Assembly (NCBI GenBank): GCA_964399265.1
Contig: CAYNQF010000004.1
Coordinates: 1-57,857 of the forward strand
Direction of reading: 5' to 3'
DNA length: 57,857 nucleotides
From: an uncultured bacterium
GTDB lineage: Bacteria > Joyebacterota > Joyebacteria > Joyebacterales > Joyebacteraceae
Within the stretch, counting starts at the first letter, position 1. The number at the start of each line of letters is the position of its first letter. The notes beneath the pieces are model-generated. The model made no database searches. It was given only the letters and a program-made list of their open reading frames with translations, and was not told the DNA's origin. Shown here piece by piece: positions 42,675 through 57,737 of the stretch. Position numbers and translations under genes: made by a program.

Positions 42675-42858
42675 TGCCCCCACCCTTCCTTTTCGTTGTC
42701 TGCCCGGACCGACTTCGTGGGAGTCCGGGTGCGGTGTCGTCTCGCGAGATGCCTTTGGATCGGGTGCTCAGGCAGAGGTTCCGCCGGACCGTGTGCCCGG
42801 GCGGAAGCTCCGCGAGATTCTAGAGGGTCTCGGGGGCATCCCGCAACCGCGAATGAAA

Positions 42859-42874
42859 TGCAAGATGCGTACCA
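42859..42874 (-). promoter_or_regulatory. sigma54 (-24/-12) promoter of the minus-strand sugar-biosynthesis pair
   Basis: Minus strand reads TGGTACGCATCTTGCA, one mismatch to TGGCAC-N5-TTGCW. Confidence 0.7.
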
Positions 42875-42911
42875 GCGCCGCGCGGAGGCGGGGAGGCCCA
42901 CTCTCTCGGCC

Positions 42912-42940
42912 TTGACGCCGGGGGCGCGGCGTTCTAGACT
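42912..42940 (+). promoter_or_regulatory. sigma70 promoter of the M42-btpA-mbx operon
   Basis: TTGACG-N17-TAGACT. Confidence 0.65.
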
Positions 42941-43031
42941 GATTTCTATTCCCGATTCACAGTTCCGCGAGCGGGGTCGACCACCGCCGGCCGACCGACG
43001 CGGTGGTACCTCTCTCCACAAGGAGGCTGCG

Positions 43032-44099
43032 TTGGACAAGACTGAACTCATGTTCAAGGAACTCACAGAGGCCAACGGCATCTCGGGCTTCGAAGACGAG
43101 GTCGCCGACCTGATGGCGACCTACGTGAAGGACGTCGCCGACGTGCGCTACGACAACCTCGGCAGCCTCGTCGCGGAGAAGCGCGGCAAGAGCGCGAGCC
43201 CACGTGTCATGATCGCCGGCCACATGGACGAGATCGGCTTCATGGTGAAGACCGTGACGAAGGAGGGATTCATCAAGTTCCTTCCGATCGGCGGTTGGTG
43301 GGGGCACGTGGCTCTGTCGCAGCGGGTTCTCGTCAAGACCAGGAAGGGTGAGTTCCTGGGCGTCATCGGTTCGAAGGCGCCGCACATCCTGAAGGCGGAG
43401 GAGAGGTCGAAGGTCCTCGACATCTCGGACATGTACATCGACGTCGGCGCGACCGGCAAGTTCGACGTCGGGAAGACGCTCGGCGTCCGTCCCGGCGATC
43501 CCATCACTCCGATCTCCGAGTTCACCATCCTCGGCAACAAGAAGACGTATGCGGCGAAGGCCTGGGACGATCGTATCGGCGTCGCCGCGGTGATCGACGT
43601 GCTGCACAAGGTCGGCAAGAGTCATCCCAACACGCTGTTCGGCGTGGGAACGGTCCAGGAGGAGGTGGGGCTCCGCGGCGCCAGGACGAGCGCGAGCCTC
43701 GTCGACCCCGACGTCGCCTTCGCCATCGACGTGACGATCGCCACCGACACGCCCGGCTGCGACGGAGCGGGAGAGGATCTGGGCTCCGGCGTGGGCATCA
43801 TGGTGCTGGACGGCAGCGCGATTCCGAGCCGCCGGCTGCGCGACTTCGTCATCGAAGTCGCCGAGAAGGACAAGATCCCGTACGTCCTGACGGCGCTCGC
43901 CAGGGGCGGCACGGACAGCGGCACAATCCAGTTCAACAAGTCCGGCGTTCCCTGCCTGACGTTCGTCGTGCCGACGCGCTACATACACGGTCACGTCGGC
44001 GTGATCCACCGGAAGGATTACGACAGTCTCGTCAAGCTTCTGACCTCCGTCGTGAAGAGGCTCGACGCGAAGACGGTGGCGACCTTCCGCAGAGGTTAG
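43032..44099 (+). CDS. M42 family metallo-aminopeptidase (TET/FrvX-like)
   Basis: AGHMDEIG, KAWDDRIG, QEEVGLRGA, AIDVT, RYIHG; TTG start after AAGGAGG. Confidence 0.92.
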   Translation: MDKTELMFKELTEANGISGFEDEVADLMATYVKDVADVRYDNLGSLVAEKRGKSASPRVMIAGHMDEIGFMVKTVTKEGFIKFLPIGGWWGHVALSQRVLVKTRKGEFLGVIGSKAPHILKAEERSKVLDISDMYIDVGATGKFDVGKTLGVRPGDPITPISEFTILGNKKTYAAKAWDDRIGVAAVIDVLHKVGKSHPNTLFGVGTVQEEVGLRGARTSASLVDPDVAFAIDVTIATDTPGCDGAGEDLGSGVGIMVLDGSAIPSRRLRDFVIEVAEKDKIPYVLTALARGGTDSGTIQFNKSGVPCLTFVVPTRYIHGHVGVIHRKDYDSLVKLLTSVVKRLDAKTVATFRRG

Positions 44100-44213
44100 C
44101 CTGAGAACGCAAACGGGCCCGCTCTCGGGCCTTCGCTGGTTCGGAGCCTGCCGGGACGTCCGTGGTCCCGGCAGCTCCGCTGTCCCTGTGGCCCCGGCCA
44201 AAGGAGTCGCGAC

Positions 44214-45023
44214 GTGGCGTTCGTCCAGGACGTGTTCGGCGTCGAGAAGGCGCTCATAGGCGTCGTCCACCTGCTGCCGCTGCCCGGGAGTCCGCTATGG
44301 GGCGGCGACATGGGCGCGGTGATGCGAAGGGCACTGGCGGACGCCTCGGCCCTGAGCGGTGCGGGCTTCGACGGCATCATACTGGAGAACTTCGGCGACG
44401 TCCCGTTCGCCCGGGGGTTCGCCGGGCGGGGCGCGGTCGCCGCGCTGGCGGCCGTCGGGTCGAGGGTCGCCGAGGCGGTCGATGCGCCGCTCGGGGTCAA
44501 CGTCCTCCGAAACGACGCCCTCTCCGCGGTGGGCGTGGGGGTGGCGATCGGGGCCGCCTTCGTTCGTGTGAACGTCCACGTCGGCGCGGCCGTATGCGAT
44601 CAGGGCATCGTGCAGGGCGGCGCCATGGAGACCATGCGCGCCGTGCGGGACATGGGCCCCGCGCTCCGCGTCGTGGCAGACGTGGACGTGAAGCACGCAT
44701 CCTCGCTGAGCGCCAGAGGCATCGAGGAGGAAGCGAAGGATGCCGTTGAGAGAGGGCTCGCGTCGGCGCTTATCGTGACCGGGAAGGCAACGGGAGCGTC
44801 CGTCGACGCGCACGACCTCGAGCGCGTGAAGGGGGCCGTCCCAGGCACGTCGGTCCTCGCGGGCAGCGGCGTCACCAGGGATACTCTGGGCGGAATCCTC
44901 ACGGGGTGTGACGGCATCATAATCGGCAGTAATGTTATGAAGGGCGGAAGGGCGGGCAACCAGGTCGACGCAGCGCGCGCGGCCGCTCTCGCGTCCACGT
45001 TCATGAACGAGGCCGGCCGTTGA
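44214..45023 (+). CDS. btpA: BtpA/SgcQ family protein
   Basis: GVVHLLPLPGSP, ENFGDVPF, GVNVLRND, ADVDVKH, IVTGKATG. Confidence 0.9.
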   Translation: MAFVQDVFGVEKALIGVVHLLPLPGSPLWGGDMGAVMRRALADASALSGAGFDGIILENFGDVPFARGFAGRGAVAALAAVGSRVAEAVDAPLGVNVLRNDALSAVGVGVAIGAAFVRVNVHVGAAVCDQGIVQGGAMETMRAVRDMGPALRVVADVDVKHASSLSARGIEEEAKDAVERGLASALIVTGKATGASVDAHDLERVKGAVPGTSVLAGSGVTRDTLGGILTGCDGIIIGSNVMKGGRAGNQVDAARAAALASTFMNEAGR

Positions 45024-45565
45024 GCAAGCGCAAGCCGAAGACCACACCGCGGTCGACCGAATCCACCGGCTCGTGGAGGCCCGTTGCGTGCTGGAGCGTG
45101 GCCCTGTTCGTGCTCTGGCTCATCCTGACTCGCAGTCTCGACCCGCAGGAACTGATGGTCGGCGCCGTGGCCTCGGTGCTCGTCTCGCTGCTCGTCCGGC
45201 AGGTGGCGGCCCGGCTCATCCTGTGCGGGGCCAGCTGGCCGAGACGCAGCGCATACCTGCTCGCGTACGTGCCCTACCTGTTCTGGAACATCGTCAAGTC
45301 CAACATCGACGTAGCGTCGCGCGTCGTGAACCCGCGACTGCCCATACGGCCCGGGATCGTGCGCGTCAAGACCAGGCTCAAGAGCCCACTCGGTCGGCTC
45401 CTCCTGACGAGTTCCATCACGCTGACGCCCGGGACCCTGACGGTCGACATCGAGGGCGACGATCTCTTCATTCATTGGATCGACGTCGAGGGCACCGACA
45501 CCGAGGCAATGTCGCGCAGGATCGTCGGGGGCTTCGAGCGATATCTGGAGGTGATCTTTGGCTAG
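45020..45565 (+). CDS. mnhE: MnhE/MrpE-like subunit (MbxA)
   Basis: IVKSNIDVA, IRPGIVRV, SITLTPGTLTVD, LFIHWID. Confidence 0.9.
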   Translation: MSKRKPKTTPRSTESTGSWRPVACWSVALFVLWLILTRSLDPQELMVGAVASVLVSLLVRQVAARLILCGASWPRRSAYLLAYVPYLFWNIVKSNIDVASRVVNPRLPIRPGIVRVKTRLKSPLGRLLLTSSITLTPGTLTVDIEGDDLFIHWIDVEGTDTEAMSRRIVGGFERYLEVIFG

Positions 45566-45818
45566 CCCGCTCATCGTCGCAGCCGCCGTCTTCGGCATGG
45601 CGGCGGTGGTCCTGTCGATGCTCCGGATGTTCCGCGGACCGACGGCGACCGACAGGGCTGTGGCGCTGGACGTGGTCACGCTGGTCCTGATGCCGACCAT
45701 GGTCGGTCTGGCCGTGTTCACCGGCCGCGTCATCTACATCGACGTCGCGCTGGTCTACGGACTTCTATCGTTCCTCGGCGTGATGTCGCTCGCGCGGTAC
45801 CTGGACAGGGGGCTCTGA
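45558..45818 (+). CDS. mnhF: MnhF/MrpF-like subunit (MbxB)
   Basis: RGPTATDRAVALD, DVALVY, LARYL. Confidence 0.9.
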   Translation: MASPLIVAAAVFGMAAVVLSMLRMFRGPTATDRAVALDVVTLVLMPTMVGLAVFTGRVIYIDVALVYGLLSFLGVMSLARYLDRGL

Positions 45819-45824
45819 GCCGGC

Positions 45825-46190
45825 ATGGCGGTCCTTCAGGTCATAGGCGGTGTAGTGGCGTTGGTGGGGTCGGCCTTCCTCTTCTTGGGGGCGCTGGGCA
45901 TCGTGCGCATGCCCGACCTCTACAACCGCATGCAGGCCGGCACGAAGGCGACGACGCTCGGATGCCTGCTCACACTGACCGGGCTCGGGCTGTACCAGCC
46001 GACGTGGCTGCCGAAGATCCTGCTCCTCGCACTGTTCGTACTCCTTACGAACCCCATCTCTTCACACGCGCTGGCGCGGTCGGCCCACAGGGCGGGTATC
46101 CCTCTCGTCCGTAAGTCGGTGGTCGACGCGCTTTCCGAGAGGGACGGCGGCGGTTCAGCCGCCGGCGGCGTCGACGAGGAGGAGCTGTGA
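45825..46190 (+). CDS. mnhG: MnhG/MrpG-like subunit (MbxC)
   Basis: GIVRMPDLYNRMQAGTKATTLG, TNPISSHALAR. Confidence 0.9.
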   Translation: MAVLQVIGGVVALVGSAFLFLGALGIVRMPDLYNRMQAGTKATTLGCLLTLTGLGLYQPTWLPKILLLALFVLLTNPISSHALARSAHRAGIPLVRKSVVDALSERDGGGSAAGGVDEEEL

Positions 46191-46423
46191 TAGTCGCCGA
46201 CGTCATCATCTGCGCGCTCATGCTGGCCGCTGCCGTGGCGGCGGTGGTGGTCAGAGGGCTCCTCTCGGCGATCATCCTGGTCGGCGTGGTGAGCCTGTTC
46301 GTGTCGTATCTCTTCCTCAGAATGGGCGCGCCCGACGTCGCGATGACGGAGGCGGCCATCGGCGCGGCGCTCAGCACGGTCGTGTTCCTGATAGCCCTCC
46401 GGCGCACCAGGAGGAAGGCATGA
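46187..46423 (+). CDS. DUF4040 / MbhD-like subunit (MbxD)
   Basis: APDVAMTEAAIGA motif; three TM helices. Confidence 0.85.
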   Translation: MIVADVIICALMLAAAVAAVVVRGLLSAIILVGVVSLFVSYLFLRMGAPDVAMTEAAIGAALSTVVFLIALRRTRRKA

Positions 46424-47124
46424 CACGGCGCCTCGTGACCATAGCCGTTCTCATCGGACTGGCGCTCGTGTGCTGGCAGATCGTGGCCGCCGGAACGCCG
46501 GCCGACCTTGGCGGTGTCAGCCGTCACTACGTCGAGCACGGCGTACAGGAGAACCGCGGCGCCAACCTCGTGACGTCCGTCGTGGTGAACTACCGAGGCC
46601 TCGACACGCTGGGCGAGGTCGCCGTCCTGTTCCTGTCGGTGAGCGGCGTCGCGTTCGTCCTGCGGAGGTTCCGCGGCGAGCCGGCGGCGAAGCCCACGCG
46701 GTCGAGCGAGATCGTGCAGACCGGCGCGCGACTGCTGGTCGGGCCGATGCTGCTCTTCGGGATCTACATCTTCGTCCACGGGCATCTGACGCCCGGAGGA
46801 GGTTTCCAGGGCGGAGCGGTCGTGGCGTCCGCCGTCCTCTTGCTGCTCCTGGCCGAGCGCGACAGACCTCTTCCGCACGCCTTCCTCTCGTGGCTCGAGT
46901 CGACCTCCGGCGCCGGGTTCGTCATCGTCGGGCTCATCGGGCTGGCGGTCGCCGGCTCGTTCCTGGCGAACAGGGGCGTCATCGGTCTCGGGGAGTGGAA
47001 CCGTCTCTTCTCGGCAGGCGTGATTCCCATCGTGTACACGCTCACGGGCCTCAAGGTCGGCTCCGAGCTGGCGACGCTCCTCGACGTGATGATGAGGGGC
47101 GAGGGGAAGGAGGGGGGCCGATGA
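46420..47124 (+). CDS. mnhB: MnhB/MrpB-like subunit (MbxF)
   Basis: NLVTSVVVNYRGLDTLGE, HGHLTPGGGFQGG. Confidence 0.9.
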   Translation: MTRRLVTIAVLIGLALVCWQIVAAGTPADLGGVSRHYVEHGVQENRGANLVTSVVVNYRGLDTLGEVAVLFLSVSGVAFVLRRFRGEPAAKPTRSSEIVQTGARLLVGPMLLFGIYIFVHGHLTPGGGFQGGAVVASAVLLLLLAERDRPLPHAFLSWLESTSGAGFVIVGLIGLAVAGSFLANRGVIGLGEWNRLFSAGVIPIVYTLTGLKVGSELATLLDVMMRGEGKEGGR

Positions 47125-47501
47125 ACCCCGGCGGCCTCTATCTCGCCAGCGGAGCCGCGCTCATCGTGATCGGCATCGCCTGCGCGGTTCTCAAGAGGAA
47201 CCTGCTCAGGATGGTGCTCGGCTTTGCCATACTGGACGCCGGCGTGCACCTCTTCATCGCCGCGATGGGCTATCTGCCTGGGCGCACGGCCCCGATCGTC
47301 GACGAGGCCAACATGTTCAGCGACGTGGCGACGATGGCGGTCGACCCGACGCGCTTCGTCGACCCGGTGCCTCAGGCGCTCGTGCTGACCGCCATCGTCA
47401 TCGGCGTCGGCGTGACCGCGCTCATGCTGGCGTACGTCGTGCGGCTCTACGCACGCGAGGGTACGCTCGACGTCCGTGAGTTCAGGAGGCTCAAGTGGTG
47501 A
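47121..47501 (+). CDS. mnhC: MnhC/MrpC-like subunit (MbxG)
   Basis: DPVPQALVLTAIVIG, LDVREFRRLKW; ATG at 47121. Confidence 0.9.
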   Translation: MNPGGLYLASGAALIVIGIACAVLKRNLLRMVLGFAILDAGVHLFIAAMGYLPGRTAPIVDEANMFSDVATMAVDPTRFVDPVPQALVLTAIVIGVGVTALMLAYVVRLYAREGTLDVREFRRLKW

Positions 47502-50500
47502 GTCCCGTCCTCTTCGTGGCGATACCTCTGGCCACCGCCTTCCTGCTCCCGCTCGTGACCTCCGGTCGCCGCGGAAGCGGCCGGGCGCGAGCGGTCCAGG
47601 CGGTCGTGCTTGCCGCGGTGCTGGCGGGAGTCGCGTATCTCGTTCCTCCGCTGCTTCGCGGCGGCGCGCCGATCGAGGTCACCACGGGCGGCTGGCCTCC
47701 TCCGCTCGGCATCAACCTGCGTTTCGGACCCGCCGAGGCGGCCCTACTGGCACTCGCAGCGGCGACCGCTCTCGGAGCGGCGCTGCGTGGGGCGGCGCGC
47801 GTCGGACGCGGCGACCGCCCGTCTTCGTCGCGCGGACGCGGGCGCGACCTCGACGATGACGCGGTGGCCGCAGGTACGGCCGACAGGGCGCCGGTGCTGG
47901 AACTCCTGATGTTCGTAGGCGCGGCGGGCCTAATCATGACCCGCGACATCTTCAACACGTTCGTGTTCCTCGAGATCGCGTCGATATCGACCTACGCGCT
48001 CGCGGTCGCGGGGCGGGAGCGCTCCGGTCTCGAGGCCGGGTTCAAGTACATGTTCCTGGGCGCCGTCTCGTCCGCCCTGATGCTCATGGCCATCGCGGTG
48101 CTCTACCGGCTGACGGGCACGCTCAACATCGACGGCATGAGCGAGGCGCTACTGCGCATTTCGACGCCGGCCTTCCCTGTCCCCGCGCTTCAGGTCGCGC
48201 TGGCGTTCCTGCTCGTGGCCTTCTTCGTGGAACTCAAGGTCTTCCCACTGAACGGTCCCGCGCTGGACATGTACGCGGGCGTTGAGCCCGGCGTCATGGC
48301 TCTGGTCGGCGGAACGACCCTCATGGCGGCGGTGTTCGCATTCTGGAAGGTGCTTCCGTTCTTTCACGGGGCGGCCTGGTCGACCGTGGTGATGGCGGTC
48401 GGGGCGTTGAGCTTCCTGGTCGGCAACGGTTTCGGCACGAGGCAGCGCAGCGTCAGGCGCATGCTCGGCTACTCGACGTCCGCCCAGGTCGGGCTCGTCG
48501 TGATGCTCCTGCCGCTCGTGGTGAGGGGAGTGGTCGGGCCCGAGATCCCCGTCATCCTGCTGGCGAGCCACGTGCTCGGCAAGACGGGCGTCCTCTGGCT
48601 GGTCGGCAGGCACGGAGGAGAGACCCTGGACGACTGGCGCGGGGCGTTCGCCGGCTCGCCGCTCGCGAGATTCTCGCTGACCACGCTCGTGCTGACGCTG
48701 GCCTGTCTGCCACCGTTCCCCGGGTTCTGGGGCAAGTGGTACGCGCTCAGCTCGCTATCCAGAACCGGGCACGTGTGGCTCGTGGCGGCCGTGCTCCTGG
48801 GCTCTTTCTTCGAGTTCGTCTACATGTTCGGATGGTTGAGGAGAGTGCACTCGCCGGCCCCCGAGGCGGACTCCGCAGGGCAGGCGACCCGGAACGCGAC
48901 CGACATCGAGCGCGCGACCAACGACGAGCCCGAACTCGAGGCCGCCGGTCCGGACGACAGACCGGTCGTCTTCGTCCACGTCTTCGCGTTCGCCTCACTG
49001 GCCATAGGTTTCCTCATGATGCGGGGGCAAGCGTTGCTTCCGCCGGCGCCGGTGATGCTGCTCGCGGGCGCGGGGCTCGCGCTCCTGGCGTTGCGCGCGC
49101 TCCCCGGCCGCGCGCGCGAGGCCCTCGTGCTGCTCACCGTGGTCGGCGTGGGCTGGATGCTCTCGAGTTCGGGGCTTCTGTCCCTCGCCGACGTGCGCGG
49201 GCTCTTCACCGCGGTCGTCCTTCTCGGCGGCACGCTGGCGGCGCTCTCATCGTACGCCGTCCCCGCCCCGGGCCGGTCGTACGATGGGCTCTTCCTCATT
49301 CTGATGTCCTCGCTCGTGATGCTCGTCCGCGCCGAGTCGTTGCTCATCTTCTTCCTGGCGTGGGAGGCGATGACCTGGACGTCCTACCTCCTGGTCGCGG
49401 GCGGACGGCGCGGAGCAGCCCCGGCGTACTCGTACATGCTGTTCTCCGGAGCGGCCGGGTTCCTCGTCATGGGCGGGCTCATGATAGCGGCCGGCCGCGG
49501 CATCACGTCGATCACCGACGTGTCGATGCTCACGGGCTCCGCCGCCGCGTGGGCGGCGGTGCTCCTGGGCGCCGGGTTCGCGATCAAGGCGGCGTCGGCC
49601 GGAGCGCACATCTGGGCGCCGGGCGCCTACGCCGAGGCTCCGGACGTCTTCTCGGCGTTCATCTCAGGCGTGCTGTCCAAGATGCCGCTCTTCGGCATCG
49701 TCGTGTTCGCCGCCCGTCTGGTCGCGGGCCCGGGGGTCCCGAGGTTCTGGGGAGTCGAGCCTTCCTACGTGCTCGCGTGGCTCGGCGCCATCACGGCCTT
49801 CGGCATGACGCTCCTGGCCGCGCTGCAGGAGGACGCGAAGCGCCTCCTCGCGTACTCGTCGGTCGGGCAGATCGGCTACGCGGTCGTGGGACTCGCGCTC
49901 TTCACGCCGCTCGGATGGACCGCGGCGCTCTACCACGTCGTCAACCACTTCCTCATCAAGATGCTGCTCTTCCTGGCCGTGGCCGGCGTCGTCTACCGTA
50001 CAGGCACGACCGACATGCATCGCATGGGCGGGCTCATCAAGAAGATGCCGGCGTCGTACATCTCGGTCCTGATCGGTATCATCGCCCTCTCGGGCGTGCC
50101 GCCGCTCTCGGGCTTCGCGGGGAAGTGGCTGCTCTACTCGGCGCTGCTGGAGAAGGGATGGTACTTCGTCGCGGGGCTGTCGATGTTCGCCTCGGTGATA
50201 GCGTTCCTGTACCTCTTCAGGCTGATACACTCGATCTTCCTAGGACAGCTCAAGCCCGAGCACCGCAACGTCAAGGAGGCGCCGCTTCCCATCGTCACCG
50301 CCCAGGCCATACTCGTGTTGGGCATCATGGGCATCTCGGCGTTCCCGCAGGCCGTGCTTCGGCCCGTGGCCGGGATCGTGGAGAGGGCGCTCGGCTCTCC
50401 CGGCATACTGCTCGCGGCAGACGGCTCGCTCCAGGTCGGCTACGGCTACCTGAACGCGTTCGCCGTGATGGCGCTCGTCATGGTGCTCTTCGCGATCTTC

Positions 50501-50812
50501 TTCGCGTTCCTCCTGTTCCTCGGCCCGAAGACGAGGAAGGTGAAGCAGCTCGACATCGTGTACGCCGGCGAGATGCCTCCGGCGCCCCAGGAAATACACC
50601 ACGCATACGACTTCTACCGTCCATACAAGAGGGCGTTCTCGCCGCTCCTGCGCGTGTCCGCCGGGCGCGGATGGGGCCGGACCTCCGCCTGGGCGGGGAG
50701 GGCCGCCGAGGTCGGGCGGCGCATGTACACGGGTGACGGGCAGTCCTATCTGGTCTACGCGCTGGCGTTCGCCGTGCTCCTCGCGGTGGTGAGGGTGTGG
50801 TTCCTGAGATGA
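47498..50812 (+). CDS. Fused double antiporter-like subunit (MbxH + MbxH'; MrpD/NuoM-L family)
   Basis: Two complete proton-antiporter modules in one ORF: FLEIAS/ELKVFP/LGYSTSAQ/PPFPGFWGK and AWEAM/IKAAS/LAYSSVGQ/HFLIK/PPLSGFAGK. Confidence 0.85.
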   Translation: MSPVLFVAIPLATAFLLPLVTSGRRGSGRARAVQAVVLAAVLAGVAYLVPPLLRGGAPIEVTTGGWPPPLGINLRFGPAEAALLALAAATALGAALRGAARVGRGDRPSSSRGRGRDLDDDAVAAGTADRAPVLELLMFVGAAGLIMTRDIFNTFVFLEIASISTYALAVAGRERSGLEAGFKYMFLGAVSSALMLMAIAVLYRLTGTLNIDGMSEALLRISTPAFPVPALQVALAFLLVAFFVELKVFPLNGPALDMYAGVEPGVMALVGGTTLMAAVFAFWKVLPFFHGAAWSTVVMAVGALSFLVGNGFGTRQRSVRRMLGYSTSAQVGLVVMLLPLVVRGVVGPEIPVILLASHVLGKTGVLWLVGRHGGETLDDWRGAFAGSPLARFSLTTLVLTLACLPPFPGFWGKWYALSSLSRTGHVWLVAAVLLGSFFEFVYMFGWLRRVHSPAPEADSAGQATRNATDIERATNDEPELEAAGPDDRPVVFVHVFAFASLAIGFLMMRGQALLPPAPVMLLAGAGLALLALRALPGRAREALVLLTVVGVGWMLSSSGLLSLADVRGLFTAVVLLGGTLAALSSYAVPAPGRSYDGLFLILMSSLVMLVRAESLLIFFLAWEAMTWTSYLLVAGGRRGAAPAYSYMLFSGAAGFLVMGGLMIAAGRGITSITDVSMLTGSAAAWAAVLLGAGFAIKAASAGAHIWAPGAYAEAPDVFSAFISGVLSKMPLFGIVVFAARLVAGPGVPRFWGVEPSYVLAWLGAITAFGMTLLAALQEDAKRLLAYSSVGQIGYAVVGLALFTPLGWTAALYHVVNHFLIKMLLFLAVAGVVYRTGTTDMHRMGGLIKKMPASYISVLIGIIALSGVPPLSGFAGKWLLYSALLEKGWYFVAGLSMFASVIAFLYLFRLIHSIFLGQLKPEHRNVKEAPLPIVTAQAILVLGIMGISAFPQAVLRPVAGIVERALGSPGILLAADGSLQVGYGYLNAFAVMALVMVLFAIFFAFLLFLGPKTRKVKQLDIVYAGEMPPAPQEIHHAYDFYRPYKRAFSPLLRVSAGRGWGRTSAWAGRAAEVGRRMYTGDGQSYLVYALAFAVLLAVVRVWFLR

Positions 50813-51750
50813 ACGCGGTCTTGGACATAGACCTCCGCATCGTCGTTGCCGCCGCGCTCAGCGTGGTCGGCGGCATCGCGTACGGACTCCTGATCGGCGG
50901 CGCCATCCGTGTCGTGATGGCGCGCATCCAGAGCCGCATCGGTCCGCCGATCTGGCAGCCGTACATCGACCTCGCCAAGATCTTCTTCCAGAGGACGTCG
51001 ATCAGGCACGGGATGATGTTCTACCTGGCGCCGGCCTTCAGGATGACGGGAGGCGTGGGGCTCTACCTCCTCATACCGGTGGTCGTCGGCGTTCCCGGCC
51101 TGTCCGGCTTCTCGTTCTCGGGCGACCTACTGCTCGTGCTCTACTTCATGTTCTTCGGCTGCCTGGGCATGGCCCTGGGCGCGGGCGAGAGCGGACACCC
51201 ACACGCAGTGCTGGCGGTGTCGAGGGGCCTCTCGCAGATGTCCTCGTACGAGCTTCCGTTCTCGCTGGCGGTGATCGCGCTGGCGGCGCACGCGGGGACG
51301 TTCTCGATAGCGGGCATTGTCGAGGCGCAGACCGGCGGCGTGTCGCACTGGTTCCTCTTCGCGAACCCGTTCGCGGCCGTCGCGGGACTCCTCGCGTTCC
51401 TCGGCATGCAGATGTACTCGCCGTTCGACATCGTGCTCGCTCCCCAGGAGATCCCGATCGGCCCGCCGACCGAGTACAACTCGGCGTTCATGACGCTCAT
51501 GATGTCGGGCCGGGCCATCTTCGGCGTCGCGAAGTGCGTGCTCTACATGGACCTCTTCCTGGGCGGCGCAGGCAGCGTGCCCGAGGCGATGCTGAAGGTC
51601 TTCCTGCTCTACTTGTGGCCGGTGTTCGTGGGCGCCGTCTTCCCGCGCTTCAGGGCCGAGCAGTCGGTGCGTTTCTTCCTGAAGTGGCCGACCATCGCCG
51701 GCGTGCTGGCCATCGTGTTCGGGATCGTGATGAGGGGGAGGATGGGATGA
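50809..51750 (+). CDS. mbxM: NuoH-like membrane anchor (MbxM)
   Basis: RIQSRIGPPIWQPYIDLAK, SYELP, SPFD..APQEI..GPPTEY. Confidence 0.88.
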   Translation: MNAVLDIDLRIVVAAALSVVGGIAYGLLIGGAIRVVMARIQSRIGPPIWQPYIDLAKIFFQRTSIRHGMMFYLAPAFRMTGGVGLYLLIPVVVGVPGLSGFSFSGDLLLVLYFMFFGCLGMALGAGESGHPHAVLAVSRGLSQMSSYELPFSLAVIALAAHAGTFSIAGIVEAQTGGVSHWFLFANPFAAVAGLLAFLGMQMYSPFDIVLAPQEIPIGPPTEYNSAFMTLMMSGRAIFGVAKCVLYMDLFLGGAGSVPEAMLKVFLLYLWPVFVGAVFPRFRAEQSVRFFLKWPTIAGVLAIVFGIVMRGRMG

Positions 51751-52478
51751 GCGACGACAGGACGAAGAGAGACGACGGACCGCCCGTCGGCGGCGTGCGC
51801 GGCGACGGATCGACTGAGGGCGGCGTGAGCGCCGACGGACCGCCCGTGAGCCCGGTCATGGGCCCGTACGAGCCGGTCGAGGCGCCTCCACTTCCGGAGT
51901 TCGACTCGTACTGCTATCTGGGCGCCGACGAAGCGCCGCAGCCGCTCGAGTACCGGGAGGCGTTTGCGAAGATCAAGAACTGGTGTCGCGCGAACTCGCT
52001 CTGGATCATGGCGTACGGCACGGGCTGTGGCGCCATCGAGCTCCGTCCGCTCATGACGAGCCGGTTCGACATCGCAAGGTTCGGGATGGCTCCGAGGCCC
52101 ACTCCGCGACAGTCGAACGTTCTCATCATCGGCGGATACCTGTCGCTCAAGACCCTGAAGAGGGTGATCCGTTCGTACGAGCAGATGCCTGCGCCGAAGT
52201 GGGTCGTGGCGCTGGGCTCGTGCACGATCAACGGCGGCATGTACTGGGACTCGTACTACACCATCAACAGGCTCGACCTCTACCTGCCGGTCGACGTCTA
52301 CGTGTCGGGCTGCATGCCCAGGCCGGAGGCGGTGATCGCGGGGTTCCAGAGTCTGATGGACAAGATCAAGCGCGGAGAGGCGAACGGGTGGAACGAGTAC
52401 CTGGAGAACCTCGCCGAGTACAAGGCGAACCAGAAACGCGCGATCCGCGACTGGAACATGCCGGACTACAACTGGTAG
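51747..52478 (+). CDS. mbxJ: NuoB-like Fe-S small subunit (MbxJ)
   Basis: TGCGAIE, LMTSRFD, PRQ, GSCTINGG, VDVYVSGCMPRPE. Confidence 0.88.
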   Translation: MSDDRTKRDDGPPVGGVRGDGSTEGGVSADGPPVSPVMGPYEPVEAPPLPEFDSYCYLGADEAPQPLEYREAFAKIKNWCRANSLWIMAYGTGCGAIELRPLMTSRFDIARFGMAPRPTPRQSNVLIIGGYLSLKTLKRVIRSYEQMPAPKWVVALGSCTINGGMYWDSYYTINRLDLYLPVDVYVSGCMPRPEAVIAGFQSLMDKIKRGEANGWNEYLENLAEYKANQKRAIRDWNMPDYNW

Positions 52479-52555
52479 GCGGGGAGGCGCCGCCCGCGGT
52501 CTGACCGGTCGAGGCCGGTGCGGGGCGGCCGGCGGGTCGCTCGAGGGAGCACGAA

Positions 52556-53098
52556 GTGGCTGACGACATCCTGAAGGAACTCCAGCGCAGGTTCAAGCTC
52601 TCGAACGCGGAGACGAAGCGGCCCGACCTCCGGGCGGCGGCGGTGCGCCCGGGCGCGGTTCGCGACGTCCTCGAGTGGCTCAGGCGGGAGAGCGGCCACA
52701 TGCAGCTCACGCTCGTCTCCGCGGTCGACTGGATCGAGGACGGCGAGTTCGAGATCGTATGGCTCGTGACCGACCCGAACGCGCACACGACCCTCATGCT
52801 CTCGACCAGGGTGGCTCGCGACAGGGCCTCGCTTCCCACGGTCCACGACCTGTGGCCGCAGGCGGTCACGTACGAACAGGAACTGAACGAGATGTTCGGC
52901 ATCCTCTTCGAGGGGAGCCCGAGACAGGGCGTGCCGTTCATACTAGAGGGCTGGCGCGACCTTCCGCCGATGCGGCGCGACTTCGACACGGCGGCCTACT
53001 CGCTCTCGCACTACGAGGGCAGGCCGGGCAGGCGCTACATCGACGCCAGGACGTTCATAGGTGAGAAGAGCGGCGAGAAGGGCTACTCGAATGAGTGA
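52556..53098 (+). CDS. mbxK: NuoC-like subunit (MbxK)
   Basis: AVDWIE, TYEQELNEMFGILFEG, PPMRRDF. Confidence 0.88.
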   Translation: MADDILKELQRRFKLSNAETKRPDLRAAAVRPGAVRDVLEWLRRESGHMQLTLVSAVDWIEDGEFEIVWLVTDPNAHTTLMLSTRVARDRASLPTVHDLWPQAVTYEQELNEMFGILFEGSPRQGVPFILEGWRDLPPMRRDFDTAAYSLSHYEGRPGRRYIDARTFIGEKSGEKGYSNE

Positions 53099-54278
53099 GC
53101 GCGAACCGAAGCGGCCGACCGGGGACACGGCCCCCAGCGGGGCGGCGCCGCGGGCCGGGGCCCCCGACCCCACGAAGGAGGTCCATCTCTGGTTCGGGCC
53201 CCAGCACCCGGGCGTGACCGGCAACATGTCGGTAGAGGCCTGGTTGCAGGGCGACACCATCCTTCGCGGCATCACGCACGTCGGCTATCTCCACAGGGGA
53301 TTCGAAAAGCTGATGGAGCGCCGCACGTTCATACAGTCGTTCCCGATCGTCTGCCGCATATGCGTTCCGGAGCCGGACACCAACGAGTACCTGCTCGCGG
53401 CCGGTGTCGAAGAGATCTCGGGGCTCGCGGCCGAGGTGCCCGAGCGCGCAAGATGGCTCCGCACGCTCACGCTCGAGATGTCGCGTCTCAGCGCGACGCT
53501 CATGGTGCTCGGCGGCCACATCGGCTCGATGGGTCTCGGACCCGTGCCGCAGTGGATGATGACGCTCCGTGACTTCGTCCTCGACAGCTTCGAGGAACTC
53601 TCCGGCCACCGCATCTATCACATGTACATCGTCTACGGCGGCGTGAGGCGGGGTGTGCCCGACGGCTTCGGGCAGAGGCTCGAGACCACGCTCCGGGCCA
53701 TCGAGGAGAGGCTGCCCTGGATCGACCGCCTCATGTTCGACTCGGCCGTGTTCCGCAAGCGCGCGATCGGCGTGGGCTACGTGCCGCCCGAGTGGGCCGA
53801 CGAGATGGCGATAACCGGCCCTGTCCTGCGCGCGATGGGCGTGGCCCGCGACCTGCGCAAGGACAGCCCCTACGAGATGTACGGGAGGCTCGAGTTCGAC
53901 GTGGTGACCGAGACCGGTTCCGACATCTTCACGCGCGCGCTCGTGAGGCGCCGCGAGATCGAGCAGTCCGTGGGCCTCATCCGACAGATGCTCGAGATGA
54001 TGCCGAAAGAAGGGCCCGTGGCCGCGCGCGTCCCGAACTTCATGAACTGGCGGGTGGCTCCCGGCATGACCTACGTGAGGGCCGAGGCGAGCCGCGGGGA
54101 GATGGGATACTTCGTGGTGACGGACGGCTCCGACAAGCTCCGTCGCGTCAACGTGCGCGGACCTTCGTACGTCAATGGGGTGAGTCTCCTCGAGCGACTG
54201 CTGCCCGGGACCAACATCTCGGACCTGGCGCCGCTCATGGTCTCCCTCCAGACGTGTCCCCCCGAGATAGAGAGGTGA
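53091..54278 (+). CDS. mbxL: NuoD-like large subunit of Mbx/Mbs type (MbxL)
   Basis: GPQHPG, GYLHRGFEK, RICVPE and TCPPEIER (2 of the 4 NiFe Cys retained), EASRGEMG. Confidence 0.88.
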   Translation: MSEREPKRPTGDTAPSGAAPRAGAPDPTKEVHLWFGPQHPGVTGNMSVEAWLQGDTILRGITHVGYLHRGFEKLMERRTFIQSFPIVCRICVPEPDTNEYLLAAGVEEISGLAAEVPERARWLRTLTLEMSRLSATLMVLGGHIGSMGLGPVPQWMMTLRDFVLDSFEELSGHRIYHMYIVYGGVRRGVPDGFGQRLETTLRAIEERLPWIDRLMFDSAVFRKRAIGVGYVPPEWADEMAITGPVLRAMGVARDLRKDSPYEMYGRLEFDVVTETGSDIFTRALVRRREIEQSVGLIRQMLEMMPKEGPVAARVPNFMNWRVAPGMTYVRAEASRGEMGYFVVTDGSDKLRRVNVRGPSYVNGVSLLERLLPGTNISDLAPLMVSLQTCPPEIER

Positions 54279-54282
54279 CGGG

Positions 54283-56055
54283 ATGAGCCTCAAGCACGTC
54301 ATATCCCCGTTCTCGGCGTGGGTCAGGGCGTTCACCAAGCCCTACACGGTCCCCAAGGCCAAGACGATGAGGCCGGGCGCGCAGCGCTACCGCGGATGGC
54401 ACGTGAACGACACCGACAAGTGCGTCGGCTGCGGCACGTGCGCGAGCATATGCCAGAACGAGGCGATCGACATGGTCGAGGTCGAGTCTCCCGAGACCGG
54501 GGACTCCGGGCTCCGCCCGCGAGTCGACTACGGCCGCTGCTGCTGGTGCGCGCTCTGCGTCGACGTGTGTCCGTCGGGCTCGCTCGGCATGTCGAACGAG
54601 TACAACTGGGTGGACGCCGACGCCGACGTCTTCCGGTACACGCCGGGCGTCGAGGAGAAGCCGTGGGACTCGCACGACAAGGGTTGGAGGCAGAGCGGTG
54701 ACGAGTTCAGCGTCTTCGATCCCTCGCGCGTCCCCATGCCGATGCTCCCGGCGGAGGAACGGACCGGGAGCTGGGCCGAGGTCGTGCTCGGATACGCCGA
54801 GGATGAGGCGCGCAGGGAAGCCTCACGCTGCGTCCAGTGCGGCATCTGTGTTGCCGCCTGTCCCGCCCACATGCACATACCGGATTACATCGCCGCGATC
54901 AGGGACGGGAACTACGCCGAGGCGGTGCGCGTCATATACGACAACAACCCGATGCCGGAGATGTGCGGCATGGTCTGCACACGGAAGTGCGAGACCGTCT
55001 GCAGCGTGGGACTCAAGGGGGACCCCATCGCGATCCGTTGGCTCAAGCGGTTCGCCACGGAGCGGTTCGACGACCTGCGCTCCGTCATCGACACGAAGGC
55101 GAGCGAGGTGGGGAAGGGACATTCGGTCGCGGTCGTCGGAGGCGGTCCATCCGGGTTCACTGTCGCGCATTACCTGGCGCTCCGCGGGTTCGACGTGACG
55201 ATCTATGAGCGCCTGCCGAAGCTGGGCGGCGCCACGTACTCGGGCATACCGCGCTACCGGTTCCCCACACCGTCGCTCGACAAACAGGTCGCGCTCCTCG
55301 AAGGCCTCGGGGTCAGGATCGTGACGGACCACGAGGTCGACGAGAAGGAGTTCGCGAGGCTCAGAGAGGAGAACCTGGCGGTCTTCGTCGGCACGGGGCT
55401 CATGAAGCCGTACTATCTGAACGTCCACGGTGAGGACCTGCCGGGCGTCATCTACGCGCTCGACCTGCTTCGCGACGTCAATCTGGGCAAGGACGTCGAA
55501 GTGGGGAAGAAGGTCGTGGTGGTCGGCGGCGGCAACGTCGCCATCGACGCGGCCCGCGTGAGCAGGCGGCTCGGCGCGGCGGTCACGATCGCCTACAGGC
55601 GCAGGCATGAGGACATGCCCGCCGACGACGAGGAGATCGAGGACGCCGAGGCGGAGGGCGTCGAGATCATCACCCAGAGCATCCCGCTCGAGGTGAAGCA
55701 GACAGAGGACGGACGTCTCAACATGGTCTGGGGTCCGGCCAAGATGCTTCCGGCGGAGCCCGGCAAGCGTCCGAGGCCTCAGCTCATTGAGGGCGTTCGG
55801 AACGACATGGTGGTCGACCGCGTCATCGTCGCGATCGGTCAGGGTCCCGACCTCTCCTGGATGGGAGACGGCCCGGCGGGCGAGATATCGGAGGACCGGG
55901 GCTGGATCAAGGTCGACGAGCACGGCGAGACGCCGCTCTCGGGCGTGTTCGCCGGTGGCGACCTCGTGAACTCGGTCGCGGACGCGATCTCCGCCATAGC
56001 CGATGGACTGCGAGCCGTCGACGGCATAACAGGACTTGCGGAGAAACGCCGCTGA
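54283..56055 (+). CDS. Fusion of a NuoI/MbxN-like 2x[4Fe-4S] ferredoxin and a GltD/NfnB/SudA-like FAD-NAD(P)H oxidoreductase
   Basis: CVGCGTCASICQ, CCWCALCVDVCP, then CVQC..CPAH..CGMVC..C, GGGPSG, GGGNVAIDAA, YRR, FAGGD. Confidence 0.9.
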   Translation: MSLKHVISPFSAWVRAFTKPYTVPKAKTMRPGAQRYRGWHVNDTDKCVGCGTCASICQNEAIDMVEVESPETGDSGLRPRVDYGRCCWCALCVDVCPSGSLGMSNEYNWVDADADVFRYTPGVEEKPWDSHDKGWRQSGDEFSVFDPSRVPMPMLPAEERTGSWAEVVLGYAEDEARREASRCVQCGICVAACPAHMHIPDYIAAIRDGNYAEAVRVIYDNNPMPEMCGMVCTRKCETVCSVGLKGDPIAIRWLKRFATERFDDLRSVIDTKASEVGKGHSVAVVGGGPSGFTVAHYLALRGFDVTIYERLPKLGGATYSGIPRYRFPTPSLDKQVALLEGLGVRIVTDHEVDEKEFARLREENLAVFVGTGLMKPYYLNVHGEDLPGVIYALDLLRDVNLGKDVEVGKKVVVVGGGNVAIDAARVSRRLGAAVTIAYRRRHEDMPADDEEIEDAEAEGVEIITQSIPLEVKQTEDGRLNMVWGPAKMLPAEPGKRPRPQLIEGVRNDMVVDRVIVAIGQGPDLSWMGDGPAGEISEDRGWIKVDEHGETPLSGVFAGGDLVNSVADAISAIADGLRAVDGITGLAEKRR

Positions 56056-57568: not shown

Positions 57569-57597
57569 TTGACATTGCCGCCTTCCGTGAGTAGACT
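57569..57597 (+). promoter_or_regulatory. sigma70 promoter of the tRNA cluster
   Basis: TTGACA-N17-TAGACT. Confidence 0.75.
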
Positions 57598-57662: not shown

Positions 57663-57737
57663 GCTGGCGTAGCTCAACGGTAGAGCGCCTCACTTGTAAT
57701 GAGGGGGTTGGGGGTTCGATTCCTCTCGCCAGCTCCA
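57663..57737 (+). tRNA. tRNA-Thr (TGT)
   Basis: Full cloverleaf: GCTGGCG/CGCCAGC acceptor stem, GCTC/GAGC D-stem, CCTCA-CTTGTAA-TGAGG anticodon arm, TTCGA loop, encoded CCA. Confidence 0.97.

Follow-up and report, generated by a model that had tools for sequence, protein, structure and literature searches.

Among complexes of the MBS/Mbx type (MBS being a membrane-bound reductase of sulfane sulfur), ferredoxin input and polysulfide reduction are known only for the enzyme of Pyrococcus furiosus (PMC7684303). Its MbsN subunit, of 208 amino acids, carries no flavoprotein and takes its electrons from ferredoxin, and its proximal cluster is held by three cysteines, with the free iron proposed to reduce polysulfide (PMC7684303). 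In bacterial mbx-like operons, Degli Esposti (2015, PMC4758237) described the replacement of NuoI by a gltD-type subunit and noted that a rubrerythrin gene follows the fusion. In the literature the Thermotogae complex is treated as a ferredoxin:NADP+ oxidoreductase (10.1101/322537; PMC4758237), the Mesotoga study calling it an NADP:ferredoxin oxidoreductase (10.1101/322537). Thermotoga maritima mbxA has been found to be up 4.4-fold on S0 (PMC9431562). Here we consider a gene of this fused kind in an uncultured bacterium of the Joyebacterota (assembly GCA_964399265.1), located at 54283-56055 on the forward strand of contig CAYNQF010000004.1, all 57,857 nucleotides of which were analysed and are called the window below. 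The gene joins an MbsN-like subunit, with two predicted [4Fe-4S] clusters, to an iron-sulfur flavoprotein of the NfnB/GltD type. With moderate confidence, we read its product as the subunit by which electrons from NADPH enter a complex-I-like ion pump of the bacterial MBS/Mbx type, and which would feed the MbsJ cluster and, through it, sulfane sulfur.

The fusion gene is a single uninterrupted frame of 590 codons. Its ATG lies 4 nt past the stop of the MbsL-like gene and is preceded by a Shine-Dalgarno-like stretch, GAGAGG. The downstream neighbor, cysS, begins 17 nt after the fusion-gene stop, and a scan of this gap for a terminator-like site found none. The window has a G+C content of 67%, at which long spurious frames are frequent, but full-length homologues of about 590 amino acids number in the thousands, so this is not a chance frame of a G+C-rich genome. 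Pfam recognizes a ferredoxin-type dicluster of two [4Fe-4S] sites at residues 43-99, then Fer4_20 (E 1.7e-29) and Pyr_redox_2 (E 3.4e-31), with boundaries as given in Table 1. When the two halves are compared with solved structures, residues 8-108 match MbsN (6u8y_N, E 4.9e-22) ahead of MbhN (6cfw_N, 5e-12) and NuoI (2fug_9, 1.1e-10), while residues 148-583 give E values of about 1e-79 with NfnB/NfnL and with the Bfu-type NfnA, and of 9e-57 with GltD. An AlphaFold2 model of the whole protein, built with 68 homologues in the alignment, has a mean pLDDT of 89.9 and a pTM of 0.84; the flavoprotein part of this model can be overlaid on NfnL 5jca_L at a TM-score of 0.87 and an rmsd of 2.0 A, and on GltD 6s6s_E at a TM-score of 0.87, both scores being normalized to the target. 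The initial annotation, made from the letters of the window, had described a NuoI-like 2x[4Fe-4S] domain continuous with a GltD-type domain, and the single frame and its Pfam parts bear this out.

To assess the cofactor sites, we used a set of 62 full-length homologues (44-88% identity), with which a separate 68-sequence alignment concurs. All 17 cysteines of the fusion protein are invariant. The N-terminal part shows the cluster pattern of an MbsN subunit, CxxCxxCxxxC followed by CxxCxxCxxxCP: C47/C50/C53/C57 are aligned to C61/64/67/71 of MbsN, and C86/C89/C92/C96 to its C96/99/102/106 (ligand numbering from PMC8165549), with C47/C50/C53/C96 forming the counterpart of the distal cluster and C57/C86/C89/C92 that of the medial one. 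An extra cysteine, C87 (window 54541-54543, in the motif RCCWC), stands outside these eight canonical ligands; it is invariant in both of the subfamilies described below, and P. furiosus MbsN has a threonine at that position. The C-terminal part has the composition of the NfnB/GltD type, namely a Fer4_20 domain with two [4Fe-4S] sites, an FAD domain and an NAD(P)H Rossmann domain, and its eight invariant cysteines are C183, C186, C189, C193, C228, C232, C236 and C240.

The initial annotation had also predicted a preference for NADP(H) from the motifs GGGNVA and YRR, which are indeed present, at residues 415-420 and 438-440. All 62 homologues have YRR, and GGGN(V/T)A is kept across the same set with one exception (GGGDVA). 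In the alignment with T. maritima NfnB, Y438-R439-R440 stand at Y310-R311-R312, residues that accommodate the 2'-phosphate of NADPH and whose positions in DsrL tell the NADP(H)-specific enzymes apart from the NAD(H)-specific ones (PMC7596348). Since YRR corresponds to the 2'-phosphate pocket of NfnB and separates the DsrL types, a preference for NADP(H) is a reasonable and well-founded prediction for this flavoprotein.

Resemblance to NfnB/NfnL (T. maritima 4YLF/4YRY; P. furiosus 5JCA) extends to 37-38% identity, the fold, the eight iron-sulfur cysteines, the FAD site and the YRR pocket for NADPH. The differences are that the locus has no NfnA partner and that E117, a cluster ligand near the bifurcating FAD of T. 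maritima NfnB, is replaced by an invariant lysine, K255; the Bfu-type NfnA 9N5U has a lysine there too. Because of this replacement and the missing NfnA partner, electron bifurcation of the Nfn kind is not indicated. We did not adopt an Nfn-like bifurcating mechanism, as there is no second acceptor by the FAD, the glutamate ligand has become a lysine, and the energetics with polysulfide would be unfavorable. GltD of the NADPH-glutamate synthase of Azospirillum brasilense (6S6S) shares the fold and the domain order, but is a weaker match than NfnB (by the E values above) and belongs with a GltB large subunit for which this genome has no gene.

The fusion gene is the last of a 13-gene operon (45020-56055, all on the + strand) in which Mrp-like subunits are followed by an antiporter-like frame, by MbsM, MbsJ, MbsK and MbsL homologues and finally by the fusion, as expected of the N subunit in an MBS/Mbx operon. 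An MBS/Mbx setting had been proposed for the fusion at the outset, and the MbsL-like, MbsJ-like and Mrp-like genes upstream on the same strand are in keeping with it. Among solved structures, the three peripheral subunits are matched best by MbsL, MbsJ and MbsN of P. furiosus. The MbsL-like protein aligns with 6u8y_L right up to its last residue, with an E value of 4e-89, compared with only 6.4e-64 for Nqo4. At the positions of H38 and Y87, which bind the quinone in Nqo4, it has T53 and V102, with T/V found throughout the family, while its C101 and C399 are the equivalents of C85 and C385 in MbsL, so that two of the four NiFe cysteines are retained, as they are in the archaeal enzyme. In the MbsJ-like protein the only cluster cysteines are C43, C108 and C138. 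C25 of P. furiosus MbsJ, which is not a ligand, has no counterpart either, the position being a glycine here and in 55 of 55 homologous loci. None of these loci deviates at the three MbsJ cysteines, and most of them retain the MbsL motifs CRICVPEPD and CPPEIER. The MbsL and MbsJ matches, the loss of the quinone residues and the three-cysteine MbsJ cluster together identify the operon, at the level of its predicted proteins, as one of MBS/Mbx type that encodes neither a hydrogenase nor a quinone reductase. It departs from archaeal MBS in that the two antiporter-like subunits, which are separate genes there, form one continuous frame of 1105 amino acids here (NuoN-like at residues 125-451, NuoM-like at 566-1102, with no stop between the modules), and in that the N subunit is predicted to hold, in addition, two further clusters, an FAD and a site for NADP(H).

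These residues also bear on whether the complex might be an NADPH:quinone oxidoreductase, that is, an analogue of complex I with a GltD-type N-module. The flavin, the chain of clusters and the logic of the chamber would equal those of complex I, and six UbiA-family prenyltransferase genes in the assembly are compatible with a quinone. However, the two residues that hold the quinone head group in Nqo4 are Thr and Val both here and family-wide, the MbsJ cluster is of the three-cysteine kind rather than the tandem-cysteine N2 kind, and the match to MbsL far exceeds that to any NuoD. We therefore regard a quinone reductase as quite improbable.

Another way to account for the flavoprotein is that its GltD-type module serves a partner encoded elsewhere, be it GltB, NfnA or an FMN protein like DHOD, and that the fusion is incidental. 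Neither gltB nor nfnA adjoins the fusion gene, as had been noted from the window, and we looked for either one elsewhere in the assembly (2.66 Mb, 195 contigs, 96% complete), the existence of such a partner having been named in the initial annotation as counter-evidence to its proposal. No GltB was found in this 96%-complete assembly, the lone PF01645 hit being a cross-hit on a protein of the IMPDH family, and no NfnA partner with a [2Fe-2S] cluster and a second FAD accompanies the fusion. Three other GltD-type genes are present, none of them lacking a partner of its own: a fused NfnAB of 807 amino acids (contig C40), a Bfu-type protein of 1212 amino acids behind a NuoF-like gene (C59) and a PreT/PreA-like pair (C16). 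The remaining DHODB_Fe-S_bind domains belong to PyrK, which is beside PyrD, and to an FNR/NfnA-like protein on contig C87, which is beside a molybdopterin oxidoreductase; the NfnA-type domains of the genome are thus tied to other partners.

Some support for an unlinked partner comes from other phyla. In 13 loci from Calditrichaceae, Melioribacteraceae and Bacteroidales, a divergent gene of the DHO_dh family (FMN barrel) lies within about 20 nt after the fusion (Table 1), and a DHO_dh-like gene next to a GltD-type module recalls the composition of PreT/PreA or DPD. The genome studied here has a DHO_dh-like homologue with 45% identity on contig C144, as well as the FNR/NfnA-like gene on C87. Against this, the DHO_dh-like gene occurs in 28 of the 31 genomes of the phylum regardless of whether they have the fusion, and is far from the fusion gene, while the C87 gene adjoins its molybdopterin oxidoreductase, and both the fusion and the gene order around it are maintained from phylum to phylum. 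We rejected the DHO_dh-like protein as a partner here, since within the phylum it is unlinked and is present with or without the fusion. Nothing in the gene content suggests that the fusion protein works with a partner encoded elsewhere, which on this point favors the initial annotation, and we consider the existence of such a partner very improbable.

In the mechanism that we favor, NADPH would reduce the FAD of the NfnB/GltD-type module, and electrons would then pass singly along four clusters, first the GltD-type pair and then the MbsN-type pair, to reach the [4Fe-4S] cluster that MbsJ holds with three cysteines at the MbsJ/L/M chamber. By likeness to P. furiosus MBS, the acceptor in the chamber would most likely be sulfane sulfur (polysulfide), and its reduction would be coupled to translocation of H+ or Na+ through the Mrp-like membrane arm. 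The flavoprotein would thus be a functional analogue of the NuoEFG N-module of complex I. Ferredoxin might be a second donor, and the enzyme may run near equilibrium, or backwards in the sulfur oxidizers that carry it.

The strongest competitor is the older "Mbx" model, an ion-translocating ferredoxin:NADP+ oxidoreductase in which the flavoprotein is the output and reduces NADP+. It is the description given to the Thermotogae complex in the literature (10.1101/322537; PMC4758237). Reduced ferredoxin should be made in this organism, whose genome has five genes for 2-oxoacid:ferredoxin oxidoreductases of the POR_N type, and modules of the NfnB type work reversibly. The coupling site of complex-I-type enzymes is the chamber formed by NuoB, NuoD and NuoH. 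Electrons moving from ferredoxin to the N subunit and on to the FAD would bypass that chamber. Such a path agrees poorly with how strictly the ligands of the MbsJ cluster, and how highly the MbsL motifs, are conserved. Moreover, Rnf and the fused NfnAB already serve exchange between ferredoxin and pyridine nucleotides in this genome. Because the invariant three-cysteine MbsJ cluster implies, as we read it, that electrons travel by way of the MbsJ/L/M chamber, we favor, of the two activities put forward in the initial annotation, NADPH:sulfane sulfur oxidoreductase activity over the ferredoxin:NADP+ model, which we judge to be unlikely though far from negligible.

Several points weigh against NADPH-driven sulfur reduction all the same. 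The E0' of NADPH is about -320 mV and that of polysulfide about -260 mV; as estimated from these textbook potentials, the driving force is small for two pump modules. An electron wire between the MbsN-type and GltD-type clusters is assumed, and the acceptor is suggested solely by likeness to archaeal MBS. In the literature that we searched, no measured activity of any fused form was found, and the Thermotogae complex is treated there as running from ferredoxin to NADP+.

The genome encodes an Rnf complex and Nfn-type enzymes in addition to the POR_N-type oxidoreductases, and its gene content suggests an anaerobic, ferredoxin-based, probably peptide-using fermenter. Among sequencing data sets, the best DNA match to the gene is a salt-marsh metagenome, probably the sample from which the assembly derives, and no RNA data set was listed for it. 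This bears on a further possibility, in which the complex operates in reverse and an ion gradient drives electrons from sulfide, sulfane sulfur or some other chamber-bound donor uphill to NADP+, supplying NADPH for biosynthesis. Close homologues with the same operon occur in sulfur-oxidizing symbionts belonging to the Chromatiaceae (Candidatus Thiosymbion), and the close potentials of the two couples suggest that the reaction should be reversible. The fermentative character of this genome speaks against reverse operation here, and we think it improbable. The assembly has one NuoD-family and one NuoH-family gene, both in the fusion operon, whereas all 30 relatives hold a NuoD-family gene of 390 amino acids besides any MbsL-like gene. 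The single set in this organism may reflect a gap in the assembly, or else a real loss of a second complex.

The fused architecture is neither rare nor new. In a protein search, 6480 hits were obtained among 8000 candidates scored, and the best 120 of these 6480 are nearly all of about 590 amino acids with the same Pfam set; the named sources among the best 120 are Acidobacteria, Myxococcota, Planctomycetota, Deltaproteobacteria, Caldithrix, Cloacimonetes and Marispirochaeta. We then have, from a locus scan that took one genome per species and near-full-length relatives, 64 loci in more than ten phyla, which add Thermoanaerobaculia, Krumholzibacteria, Calditrichia, Melioribacteraceae, Bacteroidales, metagenome-assembled genomes of Leptospira and Turneriella, Sphaerochaeta, Chromatiaceae symbionts, Fermentibacteraceae, Caldisericaceae and others. 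In all of the 64 loci for which DNA upstream is available, the fusion comes after MbsL-K-J-M, antiporter-like and Mrp-like genes, in that order. A rubrerythrin or ferritin-like gene lies directly after the fusion in 24 loci from many phyla (e.g. L020:3281-3898). In the nearest relative (L010), an apparent open frame of 1016 amino acids joining the fusion gene to cysS was dismissed, as it runs through a stretch of N and is no real fusion.

The NCBIfam model NF010590 (PRK13984, an equivalog model of 611 positions) covers the fused architecture and aligns residues 2-584 of our protein with its positions 7-604. The score of 563.6 bits lies below the curated cut-off of 946, short of equivalog assignment, and by this measure the protein belongs to a more distant branch of the NF010590 architecture. 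Similarity to the Thermotogae-type mbx is nevertheless plain in the operon of Mrp, NuoH, NuoB, NuoC and NuoD types and in the replacement of the NuoI-type subunit by a gltD-related flavoprotein; apart from the score (564 bits against 946), the locus differs in having its antiporter-like subunits in one 1105-aa frame and in being followed by cysS rather than rubrerythrin.

Thus, where the initial annotation took the fusion for a distinct variant, the same fusion and synteny recur in these 64 loci and the replacement of NuoI had been described before (PMC4758237); the architecture search that it called for returned a common, catalogued arrangement (64 loci, NF010590) not special to this locus. 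The GltD-like subunit that it mentions as accompanying mbx in Thermotogae is described in the literature as this same NuoI replacement (PMC4758237). Its description of the fused form as biochemically uncharacterized still holds, in that a search of the literature for biochemical, enzymological or structural studies of the fused bacterial form found none. The architecture is common, catalogued and already discussed in the literature, and the locus is another intact example of it.

Coordinates of the features discussed are collected in Table 1. On the upstream side, genes for an M42 aminopeptidase and a BtpA-family protein lie directly before the first Mbs gene, and the end of the BtpA frame coincides with the start of the MnhE-like frame (45020-45023). 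On the downstream side, the CysS of this assembly is 84% identical to that of a Candidatus Eisenbacteria metagenome-assembled genome, so that by this protein the assembly is Candidatus Eisenbacteria-like, and a tRNA gene follows cysS, with a promoter-like site in front of it.

Table 1. Positions of the fusion gene, its parts, the other genes of its operon and neighboring features (window coordinates unless a locus is named)
Feature	Position	Strand	Basis and remarks
Fusion gene: MbsN-like 2x[4Fe-4S] subunit + NfnB/GltD-type Fe-S flavoprotein	54283..56055	+	590 aa; Pfam, NCBIfam, structure matches, homologues, model
MbsN-like domain, residues 1-108	54283..54606	+	N-terminal helix; MbsN 6u8y_N best PDB match
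Linker between modules, residues 109-148	54607..54726	+	no Pfam domain; mostly without secondary structure in model
GltD/NfnB-type Fe-S domain (Fer4_20), residues 163-262	54769..55068	+	Pfam; eight invariant cysteines
FAD and NAD(P)H Rossmann domains (Pyr_redox_2), residues 281-575	55123..56007	+	Pfam, fold match; FAD motif GGGPSG at 286-291
NAD(P)H-binding stretch, GGGNVA (415-420) to YRR (438-440)	55525..55602	+	alignment with T. maritima NfnB
MnhE	45020-45565	+	Pfam
MrpF	45558-45818	+	Pfam
MnhG	45825-46190	+	Pfam
MbhD	46187-46423	+	Pfam
MbhE+MnhB	46420-47124	+	Pfam
NuoK-like	47121-47501	+	Pfam
Two antiporter-like modules (MbsH'/MbsH type), single 1105-aa frame	47495..50812	+	Proton_antipo_M, two stretches
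MbsM-like (NuoH-family) membrane anchor	50797..51750	+	NADHdh, E 7.7e-47
MbsJ-like (NuoB-family) subunit	51747..52478	+	6u8y_J, E 7.5e-63; frame open from 51534, start provisional
MbsK-like (NuoC-family) subunit	52556..53098	+	Complex1_30kDa, E 1.9e-22
MbsL-like (NuoD-family) subunit	53061..54278	+	6u8y_L, E 4e-89; start may be a later codon
M42 aminopeptidase and BtpA-family genes	42696-45023	+	
Promoter-like site	57569-57597		
tRNA-Thr (anticodon TGT)	57663-57737		downstream of cysS
DHO_dh-like gene following the fusion in other loci (L029-L034, L036, L039, L042, L043, L049, L051, L058, L073)	e.g. L033:11232-12248		

Within the phylum, the fusion is present in 12 of the 31 genomes, including this one, and in 10 of the 20 of good quality; an MbsL-like gene stands beside it in 11 of the 11 other fusion-bearing genomes. 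Four genomes (G006, G007, G021 and G022; loci L116-L118) carry a second subfamily, with proteins of 628-637 amino acids and about 42% identity, in which all of the cysteines, GGGNVA and K255 are retained while YRR gives way to SLE. An S/T-x-x pattern at this site marks the NAD(H)-specific DsrL-1 enzymes (PMC7596348); SLE fits this pattern and would be an NADH-type signature. Two genomes of a single genus bear different types, one YRR and the other SLE, so that the pair offers a natural experiment in nucleotide specificity. The switch between YRR and SLE is apparently undescribed in the literature that we have seen.

The locus adds no new principle, and its value lies in being a clean and intact example of the architecture and, together with the SLE subfamily, in allowing specificity to be compared. 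If the reading of the fusion protein as an NADPH entry subunit is correct, many bacterial phyla, sediment lineages like this one among them, possess a pump resembling complex I into which NADPH feeds by way of a flavoprotein that has no relation to NuoEFG. This would be a second, independent route for plugging pyridine nucleotides into complex-I-like machinery, and an energy-conserving route of sulfur reduction that genome-based models either assign to ferredoxin or omit. More tentatively, we suggest as a possibility that the flavoprotein is an independently evolved "N-module", whose nucleotide specificity has been switched in nature, as between YRR and SLE, and by which a sulfur reductase of the MBS type becomes an ion pump that is driven by pyridine nucleotides or is reversible. 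If so, the complex would constitute a widespread and unrecognized site in anoxic sediments at which sulfur compounds, the NADPH pool and the membrane potential are coupled.

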